Source of the DNA: Myxococcota bacterium | Lineage (GTDB): Bacteria; Myxococcota_A; SURF-8 | Assembly: GCA_963674735.2 (NCBI GenBank) | Contig: CAXXQS010000001.1 | Coordinates: 448,001-512,000 of the forward strand | DNA length: 64,000 bases | Direction: 5' to 3' | In this document: positions 2,016-44,977 of the stretch, one piece after another | Layout: the number at the start of each line of letters is the position of its first letter | Numbering within the stretch: position 1 is the stretch's first letter | Notes under the pieces: model-generated | The model's database searches: none | What the model was told of the DNA's origin: nothing | What the model saw: the letters and a program-made list of their open reading frames with translations, nothing else | Position numbers and translations under genes: made by a program

Positions 2016-4442
2016 GATGACGGTGTCGTTCAATTGCGCGGTCAAAGCTTGTGCTGCGGAGACCACTGTCGCCGGAGCGCCGTCCAATGCGGCCAGGAGT
2101 TCGGCGAAATGACCGAGATCGCGGAATTCATCGTAGTAATACAACTGCTGTGTTTGGTCGCGGATCGTCTCGACCTGGCTGAAAATTTGCGGGTTGGCGA
2201 TCAGGGCGTTGGCCAGAGCGGAAAGGCGCGTGGAAAGATCGGGCAATTCGGCCAGATCGACAGCGGCCAGCGTCGAGTTTTCCGAGTTGTAGTCGTGATA
2301 GCTTTGTACGATGTTGATGGCCAGCGTTTCGGCTTCCATGGCGGGGTTGGCTACAAGCGGGGGCAGAAAATCATCGTACGACCAGCCGTGGACGGGTTCC
2401 GTTTCCTGGCTTGCGACAAAGACCTCGGCATAGGGCTGGGTCGCTTCGGCCACCTCCCACATCCCCATCAGGCAGGCATCGAAACCGACGAAGTCGAGCT
2501 TTTTGCCCAATGCCGCCTGGATGCGGTTCAGAGCGCGAGCATAATCGCCGTTCGACACGGAAATCTCGGGGTTGCTGGCTCCATGGTCGTCGTTGGAGAA
2601 GCCCTTGAACAAGGGATGTTCAAGGGGCTGGGACGATCTTTCCCAACCGGCACCATGATTCCACAGGACCAGCGCATGATGGCGTGCCGGGTACTCCGCA
2701 GCCGCCCATTCTCCAAACTCGGCCAGTGTATTCCAATCGGACATGTCCACTTCGCCGAGATTCTCGATCAACGTGGAGCCGCCCTGGGTGACGTACAAAT
2801 AACGTCCATCGCCGTTGTCTTGCGAGTAGCTGTCGAACAGGGTGACGATCGAGACGTTGGCGGTCGAACCGGCCTCGCCCATTTCGGCCAAGTCGTCGTA
2901 TCCATCGTCTTCCAGGTTGTTGTCGGCGTTCAGGAAAACGAAGAAGGCCCACTCGGCGGCCGAGGTATCTTCAATGCAGATTCCGCCGGGGGTTTGCTCG
3001 ACGAAGCCGACGTTGCAGGAGCAGGAAAAACTGCCGGGCAGGTTTATTTCACAGCGATTGCGCCCTGCCGTGTTGCAGGGGTTGGGATCGCAGGGATCAT
3101 CGACGCAACTGCTGTTGTAAGGCAGGGTTCCCGCCGGGCAGACGCACTCGTAACTTGACCAGTCAATCGCCGCTTCGCATTCCGGCAAGCCGGGGCACGG
3201 GTCGGCGGCGCAGGGATCGGAACGGGAGAGGGTATCCAATGTGTAGGTTCCCGGATCGCTGTAGCTGTCTGCGAAAAGGTAGTACGTTCCGGCGTTGAGG
3301 AAACCCGACAGCGCTGAACCGTGGTCTTCGAGGGCGTCGTCGTTGCAGGCGATTTCCGTGTTTACATCCGTGCAAGTGCTGCGCATGTGCAGAACGGAAT
3401 CGAATCCGGACATCTCGAAGCGCAGGTATCGGCGTTCGGCCAGCGTGAAGGTGTAGATGCGGTCGGGGCCTTCGCTCGACCAGGATAAACAGCTTCCGTT
3501 GCCGGAATTCGCTGCGCCCGAGGTGGACCCGCTGACGTTTCCTTCCCCAAGAGCGAGCGGAATCGGGTCGCTGCAATCCGTGCCCGTGGCCACGTGTTCC
3601 AACACGCATTGTCCCTCTTCCATCACATAGCCGCTGTCGCAGTCGCAGCTGAAACTGCTGGGAAGCTCGGGAATACAGGTGGTTTGAAGCGGCGTGGTGC
3701 AGGGGTTGGGGTAACAGGGATCGGGGACGCAGTCGCCGGTGGATGGGTCGGAAACCTCACCTTGGCTGCAAACGATTTCGATTTCGAGAGAATAGGCTCC
3801 GGCATTTTGTCCGAAACCGTCGACAAACAGGAAGTAGCTCCCCGCTTGAAGCTCGACATCGAGATAAGCGGCGTGTTCACCGCCGTCGTCGTCGTCGCAG
3901 TCGATTTCCGTGGCGATCTGTTCGCAGGAACTGCGCAGGTACATCACGGTATCGAAACCATTGGCGCGTAGCTTCAAGTGAGTCGGTTCCGCGAGCGTCA
4001 ATTGATAGACGCGCTCTTCGCTGGTGTCGGCCTGGCAGGAACCCTCATAGTCGTTACCTGCATTGTTTGTATTACCTGAAATCGCTCCGGGCTTGGCTTC
4101 CAAAGGCAGGGGATCGTTGCAGGACCGACCTTCCGGGGGCGTATCGCCGTCCGTGGGATCGTCACCGTCAGTGGGCGTGTCACCGTCCGTGGGATCGTCG
4201 CCGTCCGTAGGGATATCGCCGTCCGTGGGATCGTCGCCGTCTGTGGGACTATCGCCGTCCGTAGGATCGTCCCCATCGGGCATGGGTAGCCAGATGTCGA
4301 AGTCGTTGTCCTGGTCTCCGTCACCGGATTCATCGGGATCCGGGTCGTCTTGATCGTCTGATGAATTGGATTCCGTTCCGAGGCAGGCTGTCAGGGAAAC
4401 CGTAATCAGTAACAAGATGAAAAACAAGGTGTGACGTAACAT
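1860..4442 (-). CDS. Lipoprotein: PTDGD repeats + 2 PPC-like + EGF-like modules + C-terminal clostripain (peptidase C11) domain
   Basis: Lipobox SLTAC. C11 motifs FLNADNNLE, LWNHGAGW (catalytic His), GFDACLMG (catalytic Cys), VASQETEP. Start at ATG 4442 after AAAGGA. Confidence 0.85.
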   Translation of the reverse strand: MLRHTLFFILLLITVSLTACLGTESNSSDDQDDPDPDESGDGDQDNDFDIWLPMPDGDDPTDGDSPTDGDDPTDGDIPTDGDDPTDGDTPTDGDDPTDGDTPPEGRSCNDPLPLEAKPGAISGNTNNAGNDYEGSCQADTSEERVYQLTLAEPTHLKLRANGFDTVMYLRSSCEQIATEIDCDDDDGGEHAAYLDVELQAGSYFLFVDGFGQNAGAYSLEIEIVCSQGEVSDPSTGDCVPDPCYPNPCTTPLQTTCIPELPSSFSCDCDSGYVMEEGQCVLEHVATGTDCSDPIPLALGEGNVSGSTSGAANSGNGSCLSWSSEGPDRIYTFTLAERRYLRFEMSGFDSVLHMRSTCTDVNTEIACNDDALEDHGSALSGFLNAGTYYLFADSYSDPGTYTLDTLSRSDPCAADPCPGLPECEAAIDWSSYECVCPAGTLPYNSSCVDDPCDPNPCNTAGRNRCEINLPGSFSCSCNVGFVEQTPGGICIEDTSAAEWAFFVFLNADNNLEDDGYDDLAEMGEAGSTANVSIVTLFDSYSQDNGDGRYLYVTQGGSTLIENLGEVDMSDWNTLAEFGEWAAAEYPARHHALVLWNHGAGWERSSQPLEHPLFKGFSNDDHGASNPEISVSNGDYARALNRIQAALGKKLDFVGFDACLMGMWEVAEATQPYAEVFVASQETEPVHGWSYDDFLPPLVANPAMEAETLAINIVQSYHDYNSENSTLAAVDLAELPDLSTRLSALANALIANPQIFSQVETIRDQTQQLYYYDEFRDLGHFAELLAALDGAPATVVSAAQALTAQLNDTVILSLNQSSHPNATGLSIYFPSNSSSVDTQYIQAAAVWSNHTTWDDFLLAFTN
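4140..4281 (-). repeat. 18-bp coding tandem repeat (PTDGD[D/T/S/I]) x7
   Basis: Units such as atcgtcgccgtccgtggg recur on the + strand. Confidence 0.9.
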
Positions 4443-36944: not shown

Positions 36945-37102
36945 CCCGGCGGATGATCCATGGAAAAAGCCATGGGTCGTCCGCCGTGCTTCGGCGGGTT
37001 GCTTTTTGCTGGCCTCGAAGCGATAGACCGCGCTAAGATTACCCGGCTTATATGATTTGGTTTGATGGGTCAGGCGATGCGGATTCGATAGGTGAAGACG
37101 AC

Positions 37103-38272
37103 ATGCAGATCTCGGCGATTACCACCTATTTTCTCAGTGGAACGGGCAACACCCGGCGCGTGGCGTCCTGGATGGCCGATGAAGCCGTGCGGGACGGAGT
37201 TCGAACAACGTTGGTTCCCATCGACAAGGTTCGTCCGCAGGATTGGCAAGCGCAAGCCACAGGTCGCGACCATTTGTTGCTTTTAGCCGCTCCCACCCAT
37301 GGTTTCACGACGCCTTGGGTCATGCTGCTGTTCGCACTGGCGCTTCCACGGGGACACGGGATGTCGGCGGCGGTTGTCGCCACACGCGCCGGAATGCGCT
37401 GGGGCTGGTTCGAGCCGATGGGAGTGGCGGGGAGCAATCCTTTCTTGTTGGCGTTGATTTTGTGGGTGAAGGGTTACCGCGTAAGGGGCGTTTTACCGGT
37501 CAATATGCCGTCGAACTGGTTGTCGCTGCACTGGGGCTTGCATCCCCGCAATATCGCGCGTTGCCTGTCCGTCAACGAACCGAAAACACGGCACTTTATG
37601 CGACGTTTACTTCAGGGAAAACGGACCTGGCTGACGGTCAGCAACCTGCTTGAGTTTTTCTTTGCCGTCGTCCTGTCGCCGGTATCGGCCCTGTATCTGA
37701 TTATCGGACGACGCTGGCTTGCCAAGCTGTTTTTCGCCAACTCCGATTGCATCGGTTGCGGTCTTTGCGCACGGACTTGCCCGGTCGGCGCGATTCGCAT
37801 GCTGGGACCGGAGAACAAGCGACGACCGTATTGGCGGTTGCATTGCGAGTCGTGTATGCGCTGCATGGCGTACTGTCCGCAGCAAGCTGTCGAGGCGGGG
37901 CATTCCTGGGCGTTGATTTCCTGGTATGGGATCGGCGCGCCCGTTGCGGCCTTTGCGGTTCCGTTTGTTTTGGCCTCCATTCCCGGTTTGGATCGGCTGA
38001 ATCTGCCGCTGCTTGTTTCGGCGCTTGAGATGTTGTTTTTCATTCCCCTGCTGGTGCTGGCATATTGGGGATTGCACTATTTGATCGCAATTCCTTTTTT
38101 CAATCGCCTGTTTACCTGGACCACCCTGACGCACTGGTGGCGACGTTATCAGGAACCGACCACTCGCCTGACCGAGTTGACGCGCATCTCGGAGCGGCTG
38201 CCGGACAGCCGTGTTTCGGAAGAACCCGGCGGCATTCGTTCGGCACCTGTATTGCTCTCTAAGAAAGAATAA
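37103..38272 (+). CDS. EFR1-type flavodoxin/ferredoxin protein with TM segments
   Basis: YFLSGTGNT, APTHGF, NMPSNW; CIGCGLCARTCP and CESCMRCMAYCP 4Fe-4S motifs. Confidence 0.88.
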   Translation: MQISAITTYFLSGTGNTRRVASWMADEAVRDGVRTTLVPIDKVRPQDWQAQATGRDHLLLLAAPTHGFTTPWVMLLFALALPRGHGMSAAVVATRAGMRWGWFEPMGVAGSNPFLLALILWVKGYRVRGVLPVNMPSNWLSLHWGLHPRNIARCLSVNEPKTRHFMRRLLQGKRTWLTVSNLLEFFFAVVLSPVSALYLIIGRRWLAKLFFANSDCIGCGLCARTCPVGAIRMLGPENKRRPYWRLHCESCMRCMAYCPQQAVEAGHSWALISWYGIGAPVAAFAVPFVLASIPGLDRLNLPLLVSALEMLFFIPLLVLAYWGLHYLIAIPFFNRLFTWTTLTHWWRRYQEPTTRLTELTRISERLPDSRVSEEPGGIRSAPVLLSKKE

Positions 38273-38420
38273 ATAACGAGATAAGTATTATGCGTATGTA
38301 ATGTAAAGATCTGTAAAAACAAGGGAATATAACGATTGTGTAAATTAAATCGTTCTCTACGGAGAAATTAATGGTGAAAAAATACTTGCCTTGGCGAAAG
38401 GGTTCTGGCAGACTGGATTC

Positions 38421-39266
38421 ATGAAACGGACGGCACTGGACATCTATCAATATACCGACTATCGCGACTATCTAAAGGATCGTCTGGCCGAACTGAAAGC
38501 ACAGGACCGAAAGTATTCGCTCCGCTTTCTGGCCAAGAAGCTGGGGTTGTCGTCCAACAGCCATCTCAAGATGGTTATGGATGGCGATCACAACCTCTCG
38601 CTCGAACTCGGGCGCAAGCTGGCCGATTTTCTGAATCTGCGCAAGCAGGAAACCGATTTCTTCCTGATTTTGGTCCGGTATTGCCAGGCTAAAACGACCC
38701 GCGATAAAACCGAGGCCCTGGAGGATCTGCGCCGGGTGTCCCAGTTTGTCAAGATCCATCGGCTGGCTCTGGATCAGTTCGACTATTACAACGACCCGTT
38801 GACCCTGGTGTTGCGCGAGATGGTGGTGTTGCCCGGTTTCCAGGAAGATCCGGCTTGGATTGCCCAATATCTGCCGTTCAAAGCGACTGCCAAAGAGGTG
38901 AGAGAAGCGATTGACAAACTGTTGCGCCAGGGTTTGCTTGTGCGTAACGGAAACGGACGGCTGAAAGTCACCGAATCGCACATCACCACCGGGGATGGAT
39001 TTGGGGCCGTTACGTTGAAGGGATATTATCAAAACGCCTTCAACGGGGCGCTCGAAGCGCTCGATCTTTCCAGTGACAAACGCCACTTGGGCGGAATGTC
39101 GATGGCTGTTTCGGAAGAAACCTATGAAAAGATTGTGGATCATTTCAAGGATTTTCTCAATACGGTTCGAGCGGAAGTGGATGCGGATCACCAGCCGCGT
39201 CGGGTTTACCAGCTGGTGATGGGATGTTTCCCTTTGACAAAAGAAGTATTGCCCAACGGTGAATGA
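38421..39266 (+). CDS. TIGR02147-like protein (N-terminal HTH + DUF4423-like domain)
   Basis: IYQYTDYRDYLKD...YSLRFLAKKLGLSS.SHL..V..G..NLS; E..FF..LV; LRE; WIA; C-terminal VYQL....FPLT. Confidence 0.85.
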   Translation: MKRTALDIYQYTDYRDYLKDRLAELKAQDRKYSLRFLAKKLGLSSNSHLKMVMDGDHNLSLELGRKLADFLNLRKQETDFFLILVRYCQAKTTRDKTEALEDLRRVSQFVKIHRLALDQFDYYNDPLTLVLREMVVLPGFQEDPAWIAQYLPFKATAKEVREAIDKLLRQGLLVRNGNGRLKVTESHITTGDGFGAVTLKGYYQNAFNGALEALDLSSDKRHLGGMSMAVSEETYEKIVDHFKDFLNTVRAEVDADHQPRRVYQLVMGCFPLTKEVLPNGE

Positions 39267-39318
39267 ACCGTTACAATCAGCTAGAGTGTCTGCAAGTACG
39301 AGCAGGAGAGGTGGTATC

Positions 39319-39471
39319 ATGAAATTGAAGATGTGGATTCTGGGAGCGGCGATTCTTGTCTTGTCGGGTGTGGCTTCGGTTGGTTGGATGTCTGTGGCCA
39401 CCGGCAACGATATCTGCACGCTTTCCAGCAACACCTCCACCGTCGGCAATCCGATTATCCGCCAAGGTTGA
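39319..39471 (+). CDS. 50-aa exported peptide ending TSTVGNPIIRQG
   Basis: AGGAGAGGT RBS; MKLK + hydrophobic stretch, then a short polar tail; 52 bp after the TIGR02147-like gene. Confidence 0.65.
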   Translation: MKLKMWILGAAILVLSGVASVGWMSVATGNDICTLSSNTSTVGNPIIRQG

Positions 39472-39838
39472 GCGATCGGGTTGCAACCCTCGGCCGTTTT
39501 GGCCCGGCCGACGTCGGTCGGCGGGCTTATTTCGGTGAGGATAGCAGGACGGTACCGATCAAAATTCAAACCATATTATAAATAATAAAAAATATGAAAT
39601 AACGGCGGGGCGGGGGGTTGTTTCAGGAATGTGAAACCGGCCGTTCGTGGTTTCAGGCCACGTCATGAAAGACTGACTGGCGTCTGGGCGGCGTGCGAAA
39701 GAGGTGGACGCTCCGCCCAATGTGTGGCATGACTAAGTCGTGCAGTTTTGTCAACCGGATCGACGGTTGAGGGTGAAAGAAGGAAACAGACGGTCGCCTT
39801 GTAAGCGACGAAAACCGATAGCATAAAGGAGCGGGAAA

Positions 39839-41944
39839 ATGAAACGGCAATGGCTGTTGATTTGGGGACTGTTGACTGTGTTGCTGGTTGCGTGTACGCC
39901 CAAGGCGGTCGTGAAAGATGATGCCTCGGTCGCGGACCAGACGCTCGCCGCCGTTCCCGCCGAAGCCGATGTTCCCTTGATCGAACGGGATATGTTTTTC
40001 GGTAATCCCGATATCGTGGGGGTGCGGTTGAGCCCCGATGGCCGCTGGATCAGCTATGTCGCGCCGCACGAAGGAGTCTTGAACGTTTGGGTCGCACCGG
40101 CCGGGAACATGGCGGCGGCCCGAGTGGTGACGAATGACAAAGGGCGTGGAATTACCAGCTATCACTGGGCTTTCAGCAATCGACATATTGTCTACCTGCA
40201 GGATCAGGGCGGCGATGAAAACTGGCAGATTTTCGGTGTGGATCTGCAGACGCGCCAATCGACCCTGTTTACCCCGGCCGATAAAGTGCAGGCGAACATC
40301 GTAAAGGTGAGCCACAAATTCCCTGAAGAGATTTTGATCGGGTTGAACGACCGCAATCCGCAATACCACGACATCTACCGCCTCAATATCGTCAGTGGCG
40401 AAAAAACGCTGGTGATCAAAAACGACGGCTTCGGCTCCTTCGTTTTCGACGACGATTACAAGCTGCGTTTTGCTGACCGGCCTACGCCCGAGGGTGGATT
40501 CGAGCTGCTTGAATACAAGGAGGACGGCACCTGGGCGTCGTACATGGACGTGAGCATGGAAGACGCATTCAGCACCAGCTTGATCGATTTGACGCCGGAT
40601 GGCCAGGGTGCGTACATGATCAGCAGTATCGGACGCAACACGGCGGCGCTGGTCGAGCTGACACTGGCGGACAAATCCATGCGTGTTCTGGCCGAAGATC
40701 CGAAGGCCGATGTCACCTCCGTGATGATTCACCCCGTTACTAAAAAAGTCGAGGGTGTGCGGGTGGAATTCGAGCGCAACGAGTGGACGTTCATGGATGA
40801 AGCGGTAAAGGCCGATTTCGAAACCTTGAAGGCCGTGCGCTCGGGCGATCTGTGGATCACCAGCCGCACGCTGGATGATCGCCGTTGGATAGCGGTCTTC
40901 GATCAGGATAACGGCCCGGTGTTGTTCTACCTCTATGACCGCGACCGTCGGAAGGCCGATTTCTTGTTCGCCCATCGCCCCAAGCTGCAGACGCTGCCGC
41001 TCACACATATGTATCCCACCGTTATCAAATCACGCGACGGTCTCGATCTGGTCGCCTATTACTCCCTGCCGGCCTGGGAAGACCATAACGGTGCTCCCGC
41101 GAAGCCGTTGCCCTTGGTTCTGGTCGTGCATGGCGGTCCCTGGTATCGCGACAGTTGGGGCTACGATCCCTTCCATCAGTGGATGAGCAATCGCGGGTTT
41201 GCCGTTCTCAGCGTCAACTTCCGCGGCTCCACCGGCTTCGGCAAAGATTTCGTCAATGCCGCCAATCGGGAATGGGGTGGCAAGATGCATGACGATCTGA
41301 TCGATGCGGTAGACTGGGCGGTGGCACAGAAGATCGCCGATCCCGAACGGGTCGCTATTTTCGGAGGCAGTTACGGAGGCTACGCCACCTTGGTGGGGAT
41401 GACGTTCACTCCCGAGCGTTTTGCCTGCGGGGTGGACCTGGTCGGACCGTCCAACCTGGTTACCTTCCTCAATGCAATTCCGCCATATTGGACGCCCTAT
41501 CTGGAGATGTTCACCAAGCGGGTGGGCGATCACCGCACCGACGACGGCCGTCAGTTCCTGATGTCCCGCTCTCCCATCACGTTTGTCGATAAAATCGCGC
41601 GTCCCTTGTTGATCGGGCAGGGGGCCAATGATCCGCGCGTGGTCAAGAACGAGTCGGACCAGTTGGCCAAGGCCATGCAGGAGCGTAACATTCCGGTAAC
41701 CTATGTCTTGTATCCGGATGAGGGGCACGGCTTCAAACGGCCGGAGAATCGGCAGTCGTTTTTCGCGATTACGGAAGTGTTCCTGGCGGATTGCCTGGGG
41801 GGACGTTCCGAGCCGATCGGCGCTTCTTTCCCGGGATCATCCATACAGGTGCCGGTCGGGGCGTCGTCCATTCCCGGTCTTCTGGAGGCATTGGAACCCC
41901 CGGCGGCGGTGAAAACCGAATCCGAGAATCCCGTTCAGCCATAA
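39839..41944 (+). CDS. S9 family (prolyl oligopeptidase/dipeptidyl aminopeptidase) lipoprotein
   Basis: Lipobox LVAC; HGGPW, NFRGSTGFG, GGSYGG, NDPRV, DEGHGF. Confidence 0.95.
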   Translation: MKRQWLLIWGLLTVLLVACTPKAVVKDDASVADQTLAAVPAEADVPLIERDMFFGNPDIVGVRLSPDGRWISYVAPHEGVLNVWVAPAGNMAAARVVTNDKGRGITSYHWAFSNRHIVYLQDQGGDENWQIFGVDLQTRQSTLFTPADKVQANIVKVSHKFPEEILIGLNDRNPQYHDIYRLNIVSGEKTLVIKNDGFGSFVFDDDYKLRFADRPTPEGGFELLEYKEDGTWASYMDVSMEDAFSTSLIDLTPDGQGAYMISSIGRNTAALVELTLADKSMRVLAEDPKADVTSVMIHPVTKKVEGVRVEFERNEWTFMDEAVKADFETLKAVRSGDLWITSRTLDDRRWIAVFDQDNGPVLFYLYDRDRRKADFLFAHRPKLQTLPLTHMYPTVIKSRDGLDLVAYYSLPAWEDHNGAPAKPLPLVLVVHGGPWYRDSWGYDPFHQWMSNRGFAVLSVNFRGSTGFGKDFVNAANREWGGKMHDDLIDAVDWAVAQKIADPERVAIFGGSYGGYATLVGMTFTPERFACGVDLVGPSNLVTFLNAIPPYWTPYLEMFTKRVGDHRTDDGRQFLMSRSPITFVDKIARPLLIGQGANDPRVVKNESDQLAKAMQERNIPVTYVLYPDEGHGFKRPENRQSFFAITEVFLADCLGGRSEPIGASFPGSSIQVPVGASSIPGLLEALEPPAAVKTESENPVQP

Positions 41945-41995: not shown

Positions 41996-42730
41996 ATGAA
42001 ACGACAGACGTCTTCTCTCGGACTGGCGACACGGGTTATCGCCTCCAATATCTGGCTGCTCAACGACGCACAAGGCCGCCGTTTTCTGATCGACAGTGGA
42101 CATGCCGCCGAACGGGGAAGCCTGAAGCGATCCTTGCGCAAAGCCGGAGTACGAACGCACGGTGATTTGCAGGCGGTGCTGCTCACCCATCGCCACAGCG
42201 ACCATGCCGGAAACGCCGCCTGGCTGCGAGACTACTTCGATTGCCCGGTTTTTTGTCATCCCAACGACGCCCCGGTTTTGTCGGGCTATGCCCCTGCGCC
42301 TCGGGTTTGGCGCGGCATCGGCAATCCCATCGATCATCTTTTCTGTTACATGGAGGATCACCACCCGGCGCGCTTGTGGGTGGACGATGTTTACGACGAA
42401 GGCCATTGGCGCTGGGGTTTCCACGTTTTCCCGGCCTTCGGCCATACGGAGGGATCGGTGCTGCTGTATCATGAACCCACGCAGGTTCTATTCACCGGGG
42501 ATGCGCTCCTGACCGGGATTCCGCCCATGCGGCGCTCGGAAGTCTTTCAACTCGCCTTCGCGCCCTACAGCATCGATCGTCCGCTCTGCCATCGTCTGAC
42601 CTTGGATCTGCTGGCCGATCCGCCGCCCCTGAATGGAATCGCGTCGGGGCACGGACCTTACGTGTTTGAGCGGATCGGTGAGAAACTGGCAGGTTTCGTT
42701 CAGGAACAACGTCAGGGCGTGCCTGCCTAG
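41996..42730 (+). CDS. MBL-fold metallo-hydrolase
   Basis: LIDSG, THRHSDHAG, GHTEGS, TGDA, SGHG. Confidence 0.9.
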   Translation: MKRQTSSLGLATRVIASNIWLLNDAQGRRFLIDSGHAAERGSLKRSLRKAGVRTHGDLQAVLLTHRHSDHAGNAAWLRDYFDCPVFCHPNDAPVLSGYAPAPRVWRGIGNPIDHLFCYMEDHHPARLWVDDVYDEGHWRWGFHVFPAFGHTEGSVLLYHEPTQVLFTGDALLTGIPPMRRSEVFQLAFAPYSIDRPLCHRLTLDLLADPPPLNGIASGHGPYVFERIGEKLAGFVQEQRQGVPA

Positions 42731-44745
42731 TCGGCCAATACGGCGCGGTCGCGGCCGTCGGCTTTGGCACGGTACAAGGCCCGGTCTGCGGCTCCGATCA
42801 ACGCCTCGTTTTCTTCGCCGTGGGTGGGATACACCGCGACACCGACGGAAATCGTCACAGTGCCAAGCGGGTCGCCGCTGAAACGCAGGTCGAGCTTGCG
42901 CATGCGTTCGCACAATTCGTTGGCGCGTTGAAGCGCCACCTCTTCAGGCGCCCCCGGCAAAATCAAGGTGAATTCCTCGCCGCCATAGCGGCAGGCGACG
43001 TCCTCGCGACGGATGAAGCTGTTGAGTACCAAGCCGAGTTGCTTGAGCACGTAGTCGCCTGCTTCGTGGCCATGGTTGTCGTTGAACAGCTTGAAGTGGT
43101 CGATATCGATCATGAACACGGCCATCGGTTTTTCTTTCCGGCGAGCGCGGCTGAGTTCGCGCTCCAGCGACTCTTCCAGGAAGCGTCGGTTGTAGAGGCC
43201 GGTCAAGGGATCGCGAATGGCCTGGATACGCAGGGCTTCACGTAAACGCAGGTTGGAAAGCGCTAGGCTGGTATGTTCGGCCATCAACGCCACCAGGCGC
43301 ACTTTCGATGGATCGAGGGGCATGCCCGCGTGAGATTTGAGGTGCAAAACGCCGAGCGTGCTGCCGTGGGCCATCATCGGCAGGCAGATGGTCGGCGCGT
43401 CCAGATTGTCGGGTAGGTGGCGACAAATGGCGTTCGATTTATCGGGGCCCATGCGATGGGGTTGGCCGCGGCGAATGGCCCAGCAATCGTTGGGAGCGAA
43501 CACGCGTTCCCCCGGCCAGTCGTCGCCCCAGGTGGCGATGTGCTCGAACAGGTTTTGACTGTTGTTGATGATCGACACGGCTCCCGTCTCCGACTTGAAC
43601 AGGAAAGTGGCGATGCGAGTGATGACCTCGCCCGCCTCTTTCATGCTGTCGCAGGCACCCAGTAGATTGTCGAGATCGTCGAGCAGGGTGATTTCCCGGT
43701 TGCGATCTTCGTAATTTTGCAGAAGTTTCTCGAATTCCTTTGAGAGCAAGCCGATTTCGTCTTTTCGTTTGAGAGCGAAGAATTCGCTTCCCGTTTCGCC
43801 TGCCTGGCGCGCCGTGATATAGCGCGTCAGCTGCGCCATGGGACGAATCAGGATGGATTGCAGAATCAAGACCAGGAGTCCGAACAGTCCGAGTATGACG
43901 CCAATCAAGAATAACAGTTGAATCGTGATATCGTTGTAAACAAGCTTGTGAATCACCCGTGGGATCGGCGCCCGAATGCTTAACCGGTTGCTGTTGATCG
44001 ACTTGATTGGCAGGTAAGCGGTCATGGTTTCCGCGTTGTCGAAGTCGGCCAGAATGCGCGGGTTTCCGGGCTCCCCGGGAGAAATTAGAGGTTTGGCCGT
44101 ATGGGGGATCGGTTGGAGCGTCAGTTCGAATGGCAAGGTGATGAAGCGGCTGATCAGTCCAAGAGCTTCGGTCGTCAGGACGCGGCCACCGATAATGGTG
44201 CCTTGGATGACGGGCTGAGGTCCGGTATTTTCCTCGAAGATAACATGGGCCGAGATCATCCAAACGGATTTACCGCTGATGTAGAATCCCGCTTTATTGA
44301 ATTGAGCCATATCGGAAAGCAGTAAAGGATGATCGGCGGGGATCTGATCTTGATTGAACTCGGTTTGGTTTTGTATTTCATCCCGCTTGAGATTCATCAG
44401 CCCGCCATGCAGGCGGCGGCCTTGCTTGTCGTAAATGGCCAGCAAATTCAAACCGGTATGGCTGAATTCATTCTGGAGAAGATTGGGGAGGTTGGAGGAC
44501 ACTGGTGACGTGTCATTGCGGTTCAGCAGTTGGTTTAAATGTAGAGCTGAAAACACCAGAGTGTTCAAGTGCTGCTGCTCATTGTCCAGTAGACTGTGGC
44601 AGCGTTCGATTTCAAGCTCCAACTCCCGTTTCTCGACGGCTTCAGTAAACTCATCCAGCATGTAAAAGCTGTAAAGCAACTCGACTGCAAAATAAGCGCT
44701 CCAGACAAAGGCGAGGGCTAAAAGAATTTTAGTGCGGATCATCAT
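42727..44745 (-). CDS. Membrane sensor diguanylate cyclase (CHASE4-like + HAMP + GAF + GGDEF)
   Basis: 2 TMs; RKDEIG HAMP; DPLTGLYNRR, DIDHFK, I-site RRED, GGEEF. Confidence 0.93.
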   Translation of the reverse strand: MMIRTKILLALAFVWSAYFAVELLYSFYMLDEFTEAVEKRELELEIERCHSLLDNEQQHLNTLVFSALHLNQLLNRNDTSPVSSNLPNLLQNEFSHTGLNLLAIYDKQGRRLHGGLMNLKRDEIQNQTEFNQDQIPADHPLLLSDMAQFNKAGFYISGKSVWMISAHVIFEENTGPQPVIQGTIIGGRVLTTEALGLISRFITLPFELTLQPIPHTAKPLISPGEPGNPRILADFDNAETMTAYLPIKSINSNRLSIRAPIPRVIHKLVYNDITIQLLFLIGVILGLFGLLVLILQSILIRPMAQLTRYITARQAGETGSEFFALKRKDEIGLLSKEFEKLLQNYEDRNREITLLDDLDNLLGACDSMKEAGEVITRIATFLFKSETGAVSIINNSQNLFEHIATWGDDWPGERVFAPNDCWAIRRGQPHRMGPDKSNAICRHLPDNLDAPTICLPMMAHGSTLGVLHLKSHAGMPLDPSKVRLVALMAEHTSLALSNLRLREALRIQAIRDPLTGLYNRRFLEESLERELSRARRKEKPMAVFMIDIDHFKLFNDNHGHEAGDYVLKQLGLVLNSFIRREDVACRYGGEEFTLILPGAPEEVALQRANELCERMRKLDLRFSGDPLGTVTISVGVAVYPTHGEENEALIGAADRALYRAKADGRDRAVLAD

Positions 44746-44977
44746 GATTGAGTCATTTCCCAATGCTGAGTGACAAAAACGTTGAAGCCGCTTGAATATA
44801 GGTGTAAATCTCACGGGTATCAAGCTTGAACCGAGAATCAAGCTCTGTTAGTATATTCGACAAGTTTTTTCGTAAGTTTACAAGCAATTGATAAATAGGA
44901 AATGCAACGTGTCCATTAATCGCGTGGCAGTGGGAGAGGCCGGGTCGCATCTGTTGATCGTGCGCAAGCGTCCGCTT

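Follow-up and report, generated by a model that had tools for sequence, protein, structure and literature searches.

The 64,000-nucleotide stretch analysed here (the window) comes from a Myxococcota bacterium (assembly GCA_963674735.2, contig CAXXQS010000001.1, positions 448,001 to 512,000 of the forward strand), and at its positions 38,421 to 39,471 it carries a regulator gene of the TIGR02147/DUF4423 family followed by a 50-codon open reading frame (ORF). The product of the small ORF consists of a hydrophobic N-terminal segment and a short tag ending in G-N-P. The same kind of tag was found on the exported proteins encoded next to almost all regulators of this family in related genomes, and the small ORF is, judged by comparison with these partners, the shortest member of a maintained class of mini-partners (minis). 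The features of the locus, in window coordinates, are:

38331 to 38366, plus strand: operator-like inverted repeats, AACGATT-N10-AATCGTT (38331-38354) overlapping TTCTC-N4-GAGAA (38353-38366)
38386 to 38414, plus strand: promoter-like elements, TTGCCT (38386-38391), a 17-nt spacer and CAGACT (38409-38414), 6 nt before the ATG
38421 to 39266, plus strand: TIGR02147/DUF4423 regulator gene, 281 codons, assigned from NCBIfam and Pfam profile scores
39304 to 39311, plus strand: Shine-Dalgarno site AGGAGAGG of the small ORF, read from the sequence, 7 nt ahead of its ATG
39319 to 39471, plus strand: tag-only mini-partner gene, 50 aa, assigned from its alignment to the minis of genomes G006 and G009, its tag and tblastn
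39501 to 39532, plus strand: terminator-like hairpin (39501-39527) with TTATTT (39527-39532), from a pattern scan and RNA folding

An earlier note on this DNA, made from the letters alone, had called the first gene TIGR02147-like, and the profile search bore this out. The product scored 206.2 bits (E 6.3e-61) against NCBIfam TIGR02147, for which the cut-off is 50, and residues 7-274 covered profile positions 3-271 of 272, as is expected of a full-length member. Pfam DUF4423 matched residues 111-272 with 102.3 bits (cut-off 30), and HTH_3, at 16.8 bits, stayed under its Pfam cut-off of 23. The mechanically called ORF (38391 to 39266) starts from an upstream TTG; the ATG at 38421 agrees with the N-termini of 13 aligned homologues, which start with MK(R/Q)T. 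The AlphaFold2 model (pLDDT 81.6) is mostly helical, with a helix-turn-helix (HTH) region at the N-terminus (helices at 14-70), joined through a helical linker to a winged helix at the C-terminus, whose strands span residues 173-175 and 181-183. Foldseek gave no match in the PDB at E < 0.001, and the best E value of a PDB sequence search was only 0.34. The Foldseek rows contained MarR/SlyA-type winged helices and small Xre HTH proteins, the latter with probabilities of 0.99 (2eby) and 1.00 (9k3w), yet with E values of 0.3-0.5. The regulator is thus predicted from its model to be a DNA-binding protein with an Xre-like HTH and a winged helix. No tetratricopeptide repeat (TPR) family was matched in Pfam or NCBIfam, no TPR protein was among the listed Foldseek rows, and neither the model nor Foldseek revealed a recognisable TPR or other peptide-binding module.

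The regulator stop codon (39264-39266) and the ATG of the small ORF at 39319 are separated by a 52-nt gap, and the stop codon of the small ORF ends at 39471; the position, ribosome-binding site and product had all been described correctly before. The product, MKLKMWILGAAILVLSGVASVGWMSVATGNDICTLSSNTSTVGNPIIRQG, ends in the tail ...SSNTSTVGNPIIRQG. It starts with a basic MKLK, followed by a hydrophobic segment at about residues 6-27 (22 residues) and the tail ATGNDICTLSSNTSTVGNPIIRQG, in which the tag S-N-T-S-T-V-G-N-P occupies residues 37-45. After the tag come only IIRQG and the stop, i.e. the reading frame closes 5 residues past it. The protein is predicted to be exported or membrane-anchored, with the tail outside the cytoplasm. 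It matched no Pfam or NCBIfam family, it does not contain a lipobox, and its genome holds no second copy (the next best match has an E value of 0.56). A tblastn search with the G006 mini found the window region with E 0.002. When aligned with the 110-aa minis of G006 and G009, which belong to another taxonomic family, the window mini has M1, K2, G43, N44, P45, R48 and G50 among the invariant positions, and the stretch GNPxxRQG is common to it and these orthologous minis. Homology to a partner body was absent 3' of the small ORF in every frame. Read-through or frameshifting to a longer protein was also considered and rejected, as the in-frame extension past the TGA is 37 codons and no frame has partner homology.

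The genome containing the window (G000, 5.26 Mb) is one of ten genomes of its class in the genome collection, and all ten contain members of the family, with 41 TIGR02147 matches in total. Downstream DNA could be read for 40 of them, one locus (L082) being excluded with 63 bases left on its contig. At 39 of the 40 readable loci, the window locus included, the next gene encodes an exported protein in which G-N-[PAT] follows a Gly/Ser/Thr-rich stretch, and at the remaining one (L017) the contig breaks off 193 codons into a lipoprotein gene. The tag followed the signal at six of six loci in four other genomes of the phylum, and at 12 of 16 readable loci, judged by eye, in metagenome-assembled genomes (MAGs) of Myxococcota, Bdellovibrionota, Fibrobacteria and other groups; this MAG set leaves out L045, which is on the same contig as L014, and L062, which has no downstream DNA. 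Altogether roughly 60 loci were read. According to the earlier note, the partners downstream of such regulators are often large lipoproteins with a T-x-T/V-G-N(P)-like motif just after the signal peptide, and these counts bear this out.

The association is also specific within a genome. G000 has five TIGR02147 genes, of which the four outside the window precede same-strand lipoproteins of 393-1102 aa with the tags GGSVDGNP, NGSTDGNP, GTTGEGNP and GSNDGGNA, located some 25-50 residues past the lipobox cysteine. When all six frames of G000 were scanned for the tag pattern G-[GST]-[ST]-x-x-G-N-[PA] behind a hydrophobic run, seven matches were obtained, and five of these were the neighbours of the five TIGR02147 genes. 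The partner start often overlaps the regulator stop by 4 nt (offset -4). The codons of the tag vary freely at third positions, and serine swaps between AGC and TCN, which indicates that selection acts at the level of the protein rather than of the nucleic acid; on the same grounds, the motif was ruled out as a DNA operator or an RNA element lying within the ORF. An N-glycosylation sequon was likewise dismissed: N-x-S/T occurs in the window tag (NTS) and in some others, and is missing from most of the tags compared. For an arrest peptide of the SecM/MifM type, the only ground for rejection was geometry: with the tag about 17 residues past the hydrophobic segment here and 4-15 residues past the cysteine in distant partners, the export signal would still be in the ribosome tunnel.

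Some partners carry the tag more than once. It occurs twice in the 85-aa mini of G005 (L030; SSNEEGNPD and STEEGNPDD), and among the partners in Bdellovibrionota MAGs L056 contains STGGGN three times, and L057 and L059 each contain two copies of G-x-E-[VI]-G-N-[GA]. At L080 (G003:C4:1057000-1062300) two tandem paralogous tagged lipoproteins, both with LGGGSTDGNPAIV, are encoded behind one regulator. It was further observed that L037 (G006:C4:17751-21569) and L039 (G000:C1:1982437-1986255) have almost identical regulators and 393-aa partners in genomes of different families. With end branches of 0.008 and 0.023, as against differences of 0.3-1 among the other paralogues, these two loci suggest either a recent horizontal transfer or a mix-up in binning.

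Minis, 50-110 aa long, make up seven of the 39 partners:

G000 (window): 50 aa
G006: 110 aa
G009: 110 aa
G001: 82 aa
G003: 82 aa
G005: 85 aa, two tags
G008: 67 aa

In each of these proteins the tag comes after a hydrophobic N-terminus and is itself followed by a charged tail or the stop, in place of the hydrophobic strand of the long forms; the only stretch invariant among them is G-N-P. The hydrophobic segments of several are long and, judged by eye, without an obvious signal-peptidase site. A [GAS]-C lipobox is present in none of the seven minis, as against all 33 long partners. A plain truncation of a lipoprotein gene would have retained the lipobox, and its absence from all minis argues against such an origin. 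In a maximum-likelihood tree of the regulators (32 rows, built before L071-L081 were added and with one partial row dropped), the six minis then known fell into two clusters, requiring at least two changes, and none of 500 label shuffles grouped them as well. The window regulator clusters with the regulators of the G006 and G009 mini loci (support 90/71), with a long-partner locus of G003 as sister. Between G006 and G009 the ratio of nonsynonymous to synonymous substitution rates (Ka/Ks) was 0.22 for the mini, 0.10 for the mini tail and 0.07 for the regulator. The features shared by the minis, the purifying selection in the sister lineage and the lack of a body remnant downstream together imply that the window ORF is not a fresh pseudogene fragment. 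The earlier note had proposed a partner reduced to export signal and motif; this holds at the window locus, recurs at seven loci and is conserved across families. Judged from these alignments, the mini is an evolutionarily stripped-down partner which has kept the export or anchor segment and the tag and has lost the lipobox and the body. A mini class in Myxococcota that has lost the lipobox is a new observation.

The full-size partners place the tag in a structural context. Nineteen long partners align over approximately 250 N-terminal residues, and invariance among them is restricted to the start methionine, the lipobox cysteine, the tag's G and N, and one Asp within a DxNxNGxLDxxE-like stretch. 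In the AlphaFold2 model of the closest long partner, that of G003, residues 40-235 form a beta-sandwich (means of 10-residue blocks mostly 80-95), and the tag is modelled as a loop joining strand 41-47 to strand 56-63. The tagged lipoproteins span 291 to over 1100 aa. The partner body had no PDB match at E < 0.001 in Foldseek, and its best score in the ESM Atlas was 0.88, below the 0.9 lead level, with a weak pointer to DUF4382. Pfam and NCBIfam gave nothing for the N-terminal domain of the four long partners of G000. Ten distant partners yielded in Pfam one sub-threshold DUF4382 match and two sub-threshold CarboxypepD_reg matches, the latter in Fibrobacteria, and seven were without a match. 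As the bodies behind the tag differ among lineages, the tag behaves as a portable N-terminal element and not as the best-kept part of a domain.

Upstream of the regulators the elements are conserved in position. At the main-clade loci a CAnACT-like hexamer ends 6-7 nt 5' of the start codon, without a Shine-Dalgarno site, and in 18 of the 23 loci TTG[CA]x is situated exactly 35-36 nt 5' of the start codon. In the window, too, no Shine-Dalgarno site was found 5' of position 38421. The spacing of the boxes to the start codon implies a leaderless mRNA. The window promoter was not called by a consensus scan, since its -10 element fits only three of six positions. The best inverted repeat begins 79-87 nt 5' of the ATG in 16 of the 23 main-clade homologues, and an inverted-repeat score of at least 7 was reached at 12 of 23 loci, compared with 6% of shuffles. 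The sequence of the palindrome varies among paralogues (CGTTCAC/GTGAACG, TGATCAC/GTGATCA, GTGAAAAC/GTTTTCAC and others); in the window the left half-site, CGTTCTCT, is intact and fits the clade consensus. A paralogue-specific palindrome ahead of a protein with two HTH elements fits an autoregulated DNA-binding factor, and binding of the regulators to their palindromes is what the positions and sequences of these repeats suggest. In its predicted fold elements and in the position-conserved, paralogue-specific palindrome the system resembles autoregulated Xre-type and MarR-type (winged-helix) factors. It differs from them in the combination of the two domains and in the obligatory exported partner. 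At the other end of the unit, the hairpin begins 30 nt past the mini stop codon. The segment 39469-39545 folds at -36.9 kcal/mol (z -2.27), with 2 of 200 shuffles equally good, and its U-tract is weak; transcription probably terminates at this hairpin, as far as the predicted fold can tell.

In four relatives (G006, G009, G001 and G008) the regulator-mini pair is followed by the gene of a signal-bearing protein of 350 aa, preceded in G001 by an extra 198-aa protein. The 350-aa protein carries a K-x-W-W-S/G-x-x-F-x-Y-x-x-x-H-N stretch. The next gene, in G006 and G001, the two that could be read that far, encodes a lipoprotein of 1830 or 1592 aa, for which the sole Pfam hint was a Met-zincin motif. 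The 350-aa protein is single-copy in all ten genomes of the class. Its gene adjoins the regulator-mini pair in the four genomes mentioned and lies apart from it in G000, G003, G004 and G007; in G002 and G005 its placement is masked by contig ends. The G000 cluster, which we call the zincin cluster, consists of genes for 210-aa, 353-aa and 1584-aa proteins and is found at C1:1298822-1305502 on the minus strand, beside rpsB-tsf-pyrH and 819 kb from the window locus.

Directly 5' of the G000 zincin cluster there is TGCTCTCTAAGATAGAGCA, then a TTTTCGCTTGCA box and then ATGAAAAGGTAG, with the palindrome at C1:1305483-1305501 (L083:7400-7530, minus strand). This segment aligns column for column with the regulator promoter regions of G003, G006 and G009, whose clade palindromes are CGCTCTCT..AGAGCG, TGCTCTCT..AGAGAGCA and TGCTCTTT..CAGAGCG, respectively. 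From this correspondence we infer that the pair may once have headed the zincin cluster of G000, as it does in G006 and G009, and was then removed or moved. An operator, a -35 box and a three-codon stub (a relic of the ATGAAA start) would have been left behind. In G003, an ORF 5' of the 350-aa gene (L084, G003:C4:635001-639200, ORF 2384-3448) starts with MTRSKRNDGNPERKRE..., which resembles the tag and tail of the G001 mini (GNPDRKRE) and is without a hydrophobic N-terminus; it may be a decayed mini. The link of the minis to the cluster of the 350-aa and zincin-like proteins is new, as is the relic which ties the orphan pair of the window to that cluster.

The family membership of the regulator, its pairing with exported partners, the specificity of the tag and its conservation at the protein level, the loss of the lipobox in the minis and the operon context in relatives are established, as are the recurrence of the minis and the purifying selection on them in the sister lineage. 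In explaining these observations we lean, on balance, towards a joint reading. The locus would be a self-contained two-gene unit, composed of a leaderless promoter with its palindrome, the TIGR02147 regulator, the 50-aa mini and a terminator. The regulator would bind palindromes and control its own operon, as suggested by the fixed position and the paralogue specificity of these repeats, and it would probably act in trans on the distant zincin cluster, where a matching palindrome is found. Outside the cytoplasm the tag would serve as a handle for a hypothetical envelope component common to all partners, and the mini, with its gene remaining linked to that of the regulator, would work as a tag-only adaptor or competitor. 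A partial parallel is the lipoprotein export signal (LES) of Bacteroidota surface lipoproteins, a short motif near the lipobox cysteine of otherwise unrelated proteins. The tag, too, is short and stands behind the lipobox cysteine of otherwise unrelated lipoproteins. Unlike the LES, however, it is tied to one regulator family (five of the seven genome-wide matches), lies anywhere from 4 to about 50 residues past the cysteine and also occurs on the minis, which are not lipoproteins.

Several points weigh against this reading. The envelope component that would recognise the tag is hypothetical, and the differing bodies fit a portable tag without proving one. Expression and translation of the 50-aa ORF are predictions from sequence, and its hydrophobic N-terminus, assessed by eye alone, may be either a cleaved signal or an anchor. 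The window mini is the shortest of its class; it ends after RQG, where the G006 and G009 orthologues continue for 45 more conserved residues. The window palindrome has a degenerate right half and stands 12 nt closer to the -35 box than in the clade. The -35/-10 spacing of the relic promoter at the zincin cluster is also altered, so that this promoter may be dead rather than a target in trans. The genus is represented by one genome, and the locus was listed for contigs of three DNA runs, all identical to the window, and for no RNA run; without variants at the locus, selection on the window ORF itself could not be measured. Decay may have set in after the split from the zincin cluster.

Taken to its full extent, decay would mean that the partner gene was truncated once the regulator had split off, and that the 50-codon ORF is a non-functional remnant whose start and motif persist by chance. 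The shortness of the window mini, which is without the conserved tail of its orthologues, the degenerate palindrome and the detachment from the zincin cluster would all agree with this, and the apparent mini relic in G003 indicates that such loss occurs in the group. Nevertheless, we consider it unlikely. The start codon, the Shine-Dalgarno site, the hydrophobic segment and the tag are all intact, and the hairpin follows directly. The reduced architecture occurs at seven loci (two tree clusters and one later locus) and gave a Ka/Ks of 0.22 in one close pair. The lipobox has been lost in all seven minis, which simple truncation would not explain, and a remnant of a partner body was not found downstream of the window ORF. 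The earlier note had itself allowed for a truncated remnant of a longer lipoprotein, and this held only in part: the partner is indeed stripped down, but it belongs to a maintained class in which the lipobox is lost, and no body is left behind it.

Other explanations would have the tag act on the regulator rather than on a separate envelope component. In a secretion-coupled feedback, the cytoplasmic regulator would sense the N-terminus or tag of its partner before export and in this way report the state of export or of the envelope, the mini being the minimal form of such a partner. That the tag is found almost only beside the TIGR02147 family is in line with this, and the frequent 4-nt start/stop overlaps would cause the two proteins to be made side by side; moreover, the mini stayed with the regulator and not with the structural genes when the operon was split. 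However, this would require contact between regulator and partner, the regulator model has no recognisable peptide-binding module, and the 52-nt gap with its own Shine-Dalgarno site means that coupling is not obligatory here, which makes this explanation quite improbable. When the regulator and the mini were co-folded (alignments A1 and A3, respectively), ipSAE was 0.00 in two runs without controls, which is evidence neither way.

The earlier note had proposed an analogy to RRNPP regulator/peptide pairs, with the motif as a possible ligand; such pairs of Gram-positive bacteria include PlcR-PapR, Rgg-SHP and PrgX. The mini would in that case be processed and released, and the tag peptide would be re-imported or sensed and would bind the regulator as a quorum-type signal. 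The likeness is one of gene order, as the gene after that of the HTH regulator encodes a small exported peptide in which a short motif is conserved, and the repeated tags of the G005 mini (two) and of three Bdellovibrionota partners (two or three) are reminiscent of multi-copy peptide precursors. The comparison gave no support to the analogy: the regulator has neither a TPR domain nor another known peptide-sensing domain and, as the TPR domain defines the RRNPP proteins, it is not one of them. For every partner the tag is predicted to lie outside the cytoplasm, and in the large folded lipoproteins, of 291 to over 1100 aa, it makes up the first loop, at the start of a beta-sandwich. The lineage is Gram-negative and no import system is linked to the pair. 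There is also no linked permease or processing gene, the neighbours other than the partners are not conserved, the S9 peptidase gene downstream is a separate and non-conserved unit, and several minis seem by eye to be without an obvious signal-peptidase site. Of all the explanations considered, we find this one the least probable.

A broader version has a somewhat better, yet still small, chance of being correct. The tag would here be the working part of an as yet undescribed envelope-to-DNA signalling module in Myxococcota, Bdellovibrionota and Fibrobacterota, in which the TIGR02147 regulator reads the state of its tagged partner either directly or via a shared envelope receptor. The minis would be the minimal signalling element, kept with the regulator after the split and maybe released as a peptide cue.

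TIGR02147 ('Fsuc_second')/DUF4423 (PF14394) is a large family without known function, and its module with tagged exported proteins is unusually regular. In the papers searched, DUF4423 came up once, as a row for Bd3700 in a proteomics table (PMC12546842), and TIGR02147, PF14394 and Fsuc_second did not come up. With other members of the family the window locus shares the full-length regulator, the tagged exported partner and the upstream palindrome. It differs from them in that the partner is a 50-aa anchor and tag instead of a lipoprotein, and in that the pair forms an isolated unit closed by a hairpin, apart from the structural genes which follow it in relatives. The minis show that it is the 9-residue tag, and not the lipoprotein body, which stays linked to the regulator. 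What was a vague pairing of regulator and lipoprotein thereby becomes testable by means of a synthetic peptide, the three residues that never vary, the two palindromes and the cluster proposed as target. If the tag is a sorting handle or a signal, it would belong to a new envelope pathway common to predatory and fibre-degrading bacteria; otherwise, the locus still illustrates cleanly how the head of an operon, here the regulator and mini genes, becomes separated from the structural genes.

The other features considered in the window lie on both sides of the pair:

37052 to 38272, plus strand: EFR1-family ferredoxin, 406 aa (97 bits, cut-off 75)
38472 to 39569, minus strand: mechanically called ORF of 365 aa from the ORF list, opposite the regulator and mini genes
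39839 to 41944, plus strand: Peptidase_S9 protein, 701 aa (Pfam 154 bits), with a lipobox-like N-terminus ...LLVAC
42727 to 44841, minus strand: ORF of 704 aa whose C-terminal part contains ...RYGGEEF..., by eye a signature of GGDEF-type diguanylate cyclases

It had been speculated that the S9 peptidase trims or clears the peptide. The best NCBIfam rows of this protein, Dpp5 and lasso-peptide isopeptidase, were far under their cut-offs, and its gene is separated from the small ORF by 367 nt with the terminator-like hairpin between them. Of the 23 window ORF products of at least 150 aa (30-48 kb) searched for at five related loci, each covered over 14-18 kb, none but the regulator and its opposite-strand mirror ORF had a match; the S9 peptidase was present at none of the five. 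The other genes of the window thus do not travel with the regulator, and the link to the peptidase is without comparative support. As a processing enzyme the peptidase was rejected, since the linkage is not conserved and the hairpin points to a separate transcription unit. PADLOC assigned no defence family to the regulator, the mini or the peptidase. The antisense 365-aa ORF is most likely not a gene, as its tblastn matches in relatives mirror the other strand of the regulator gene. The EFR1-family ferredoxin contains a 4Fe-4S dicluster region, its C-terminal half is hydrophobic, and its gene ends 148 nt 5' of the regulator gene, with an AT-rich spacer between the two.

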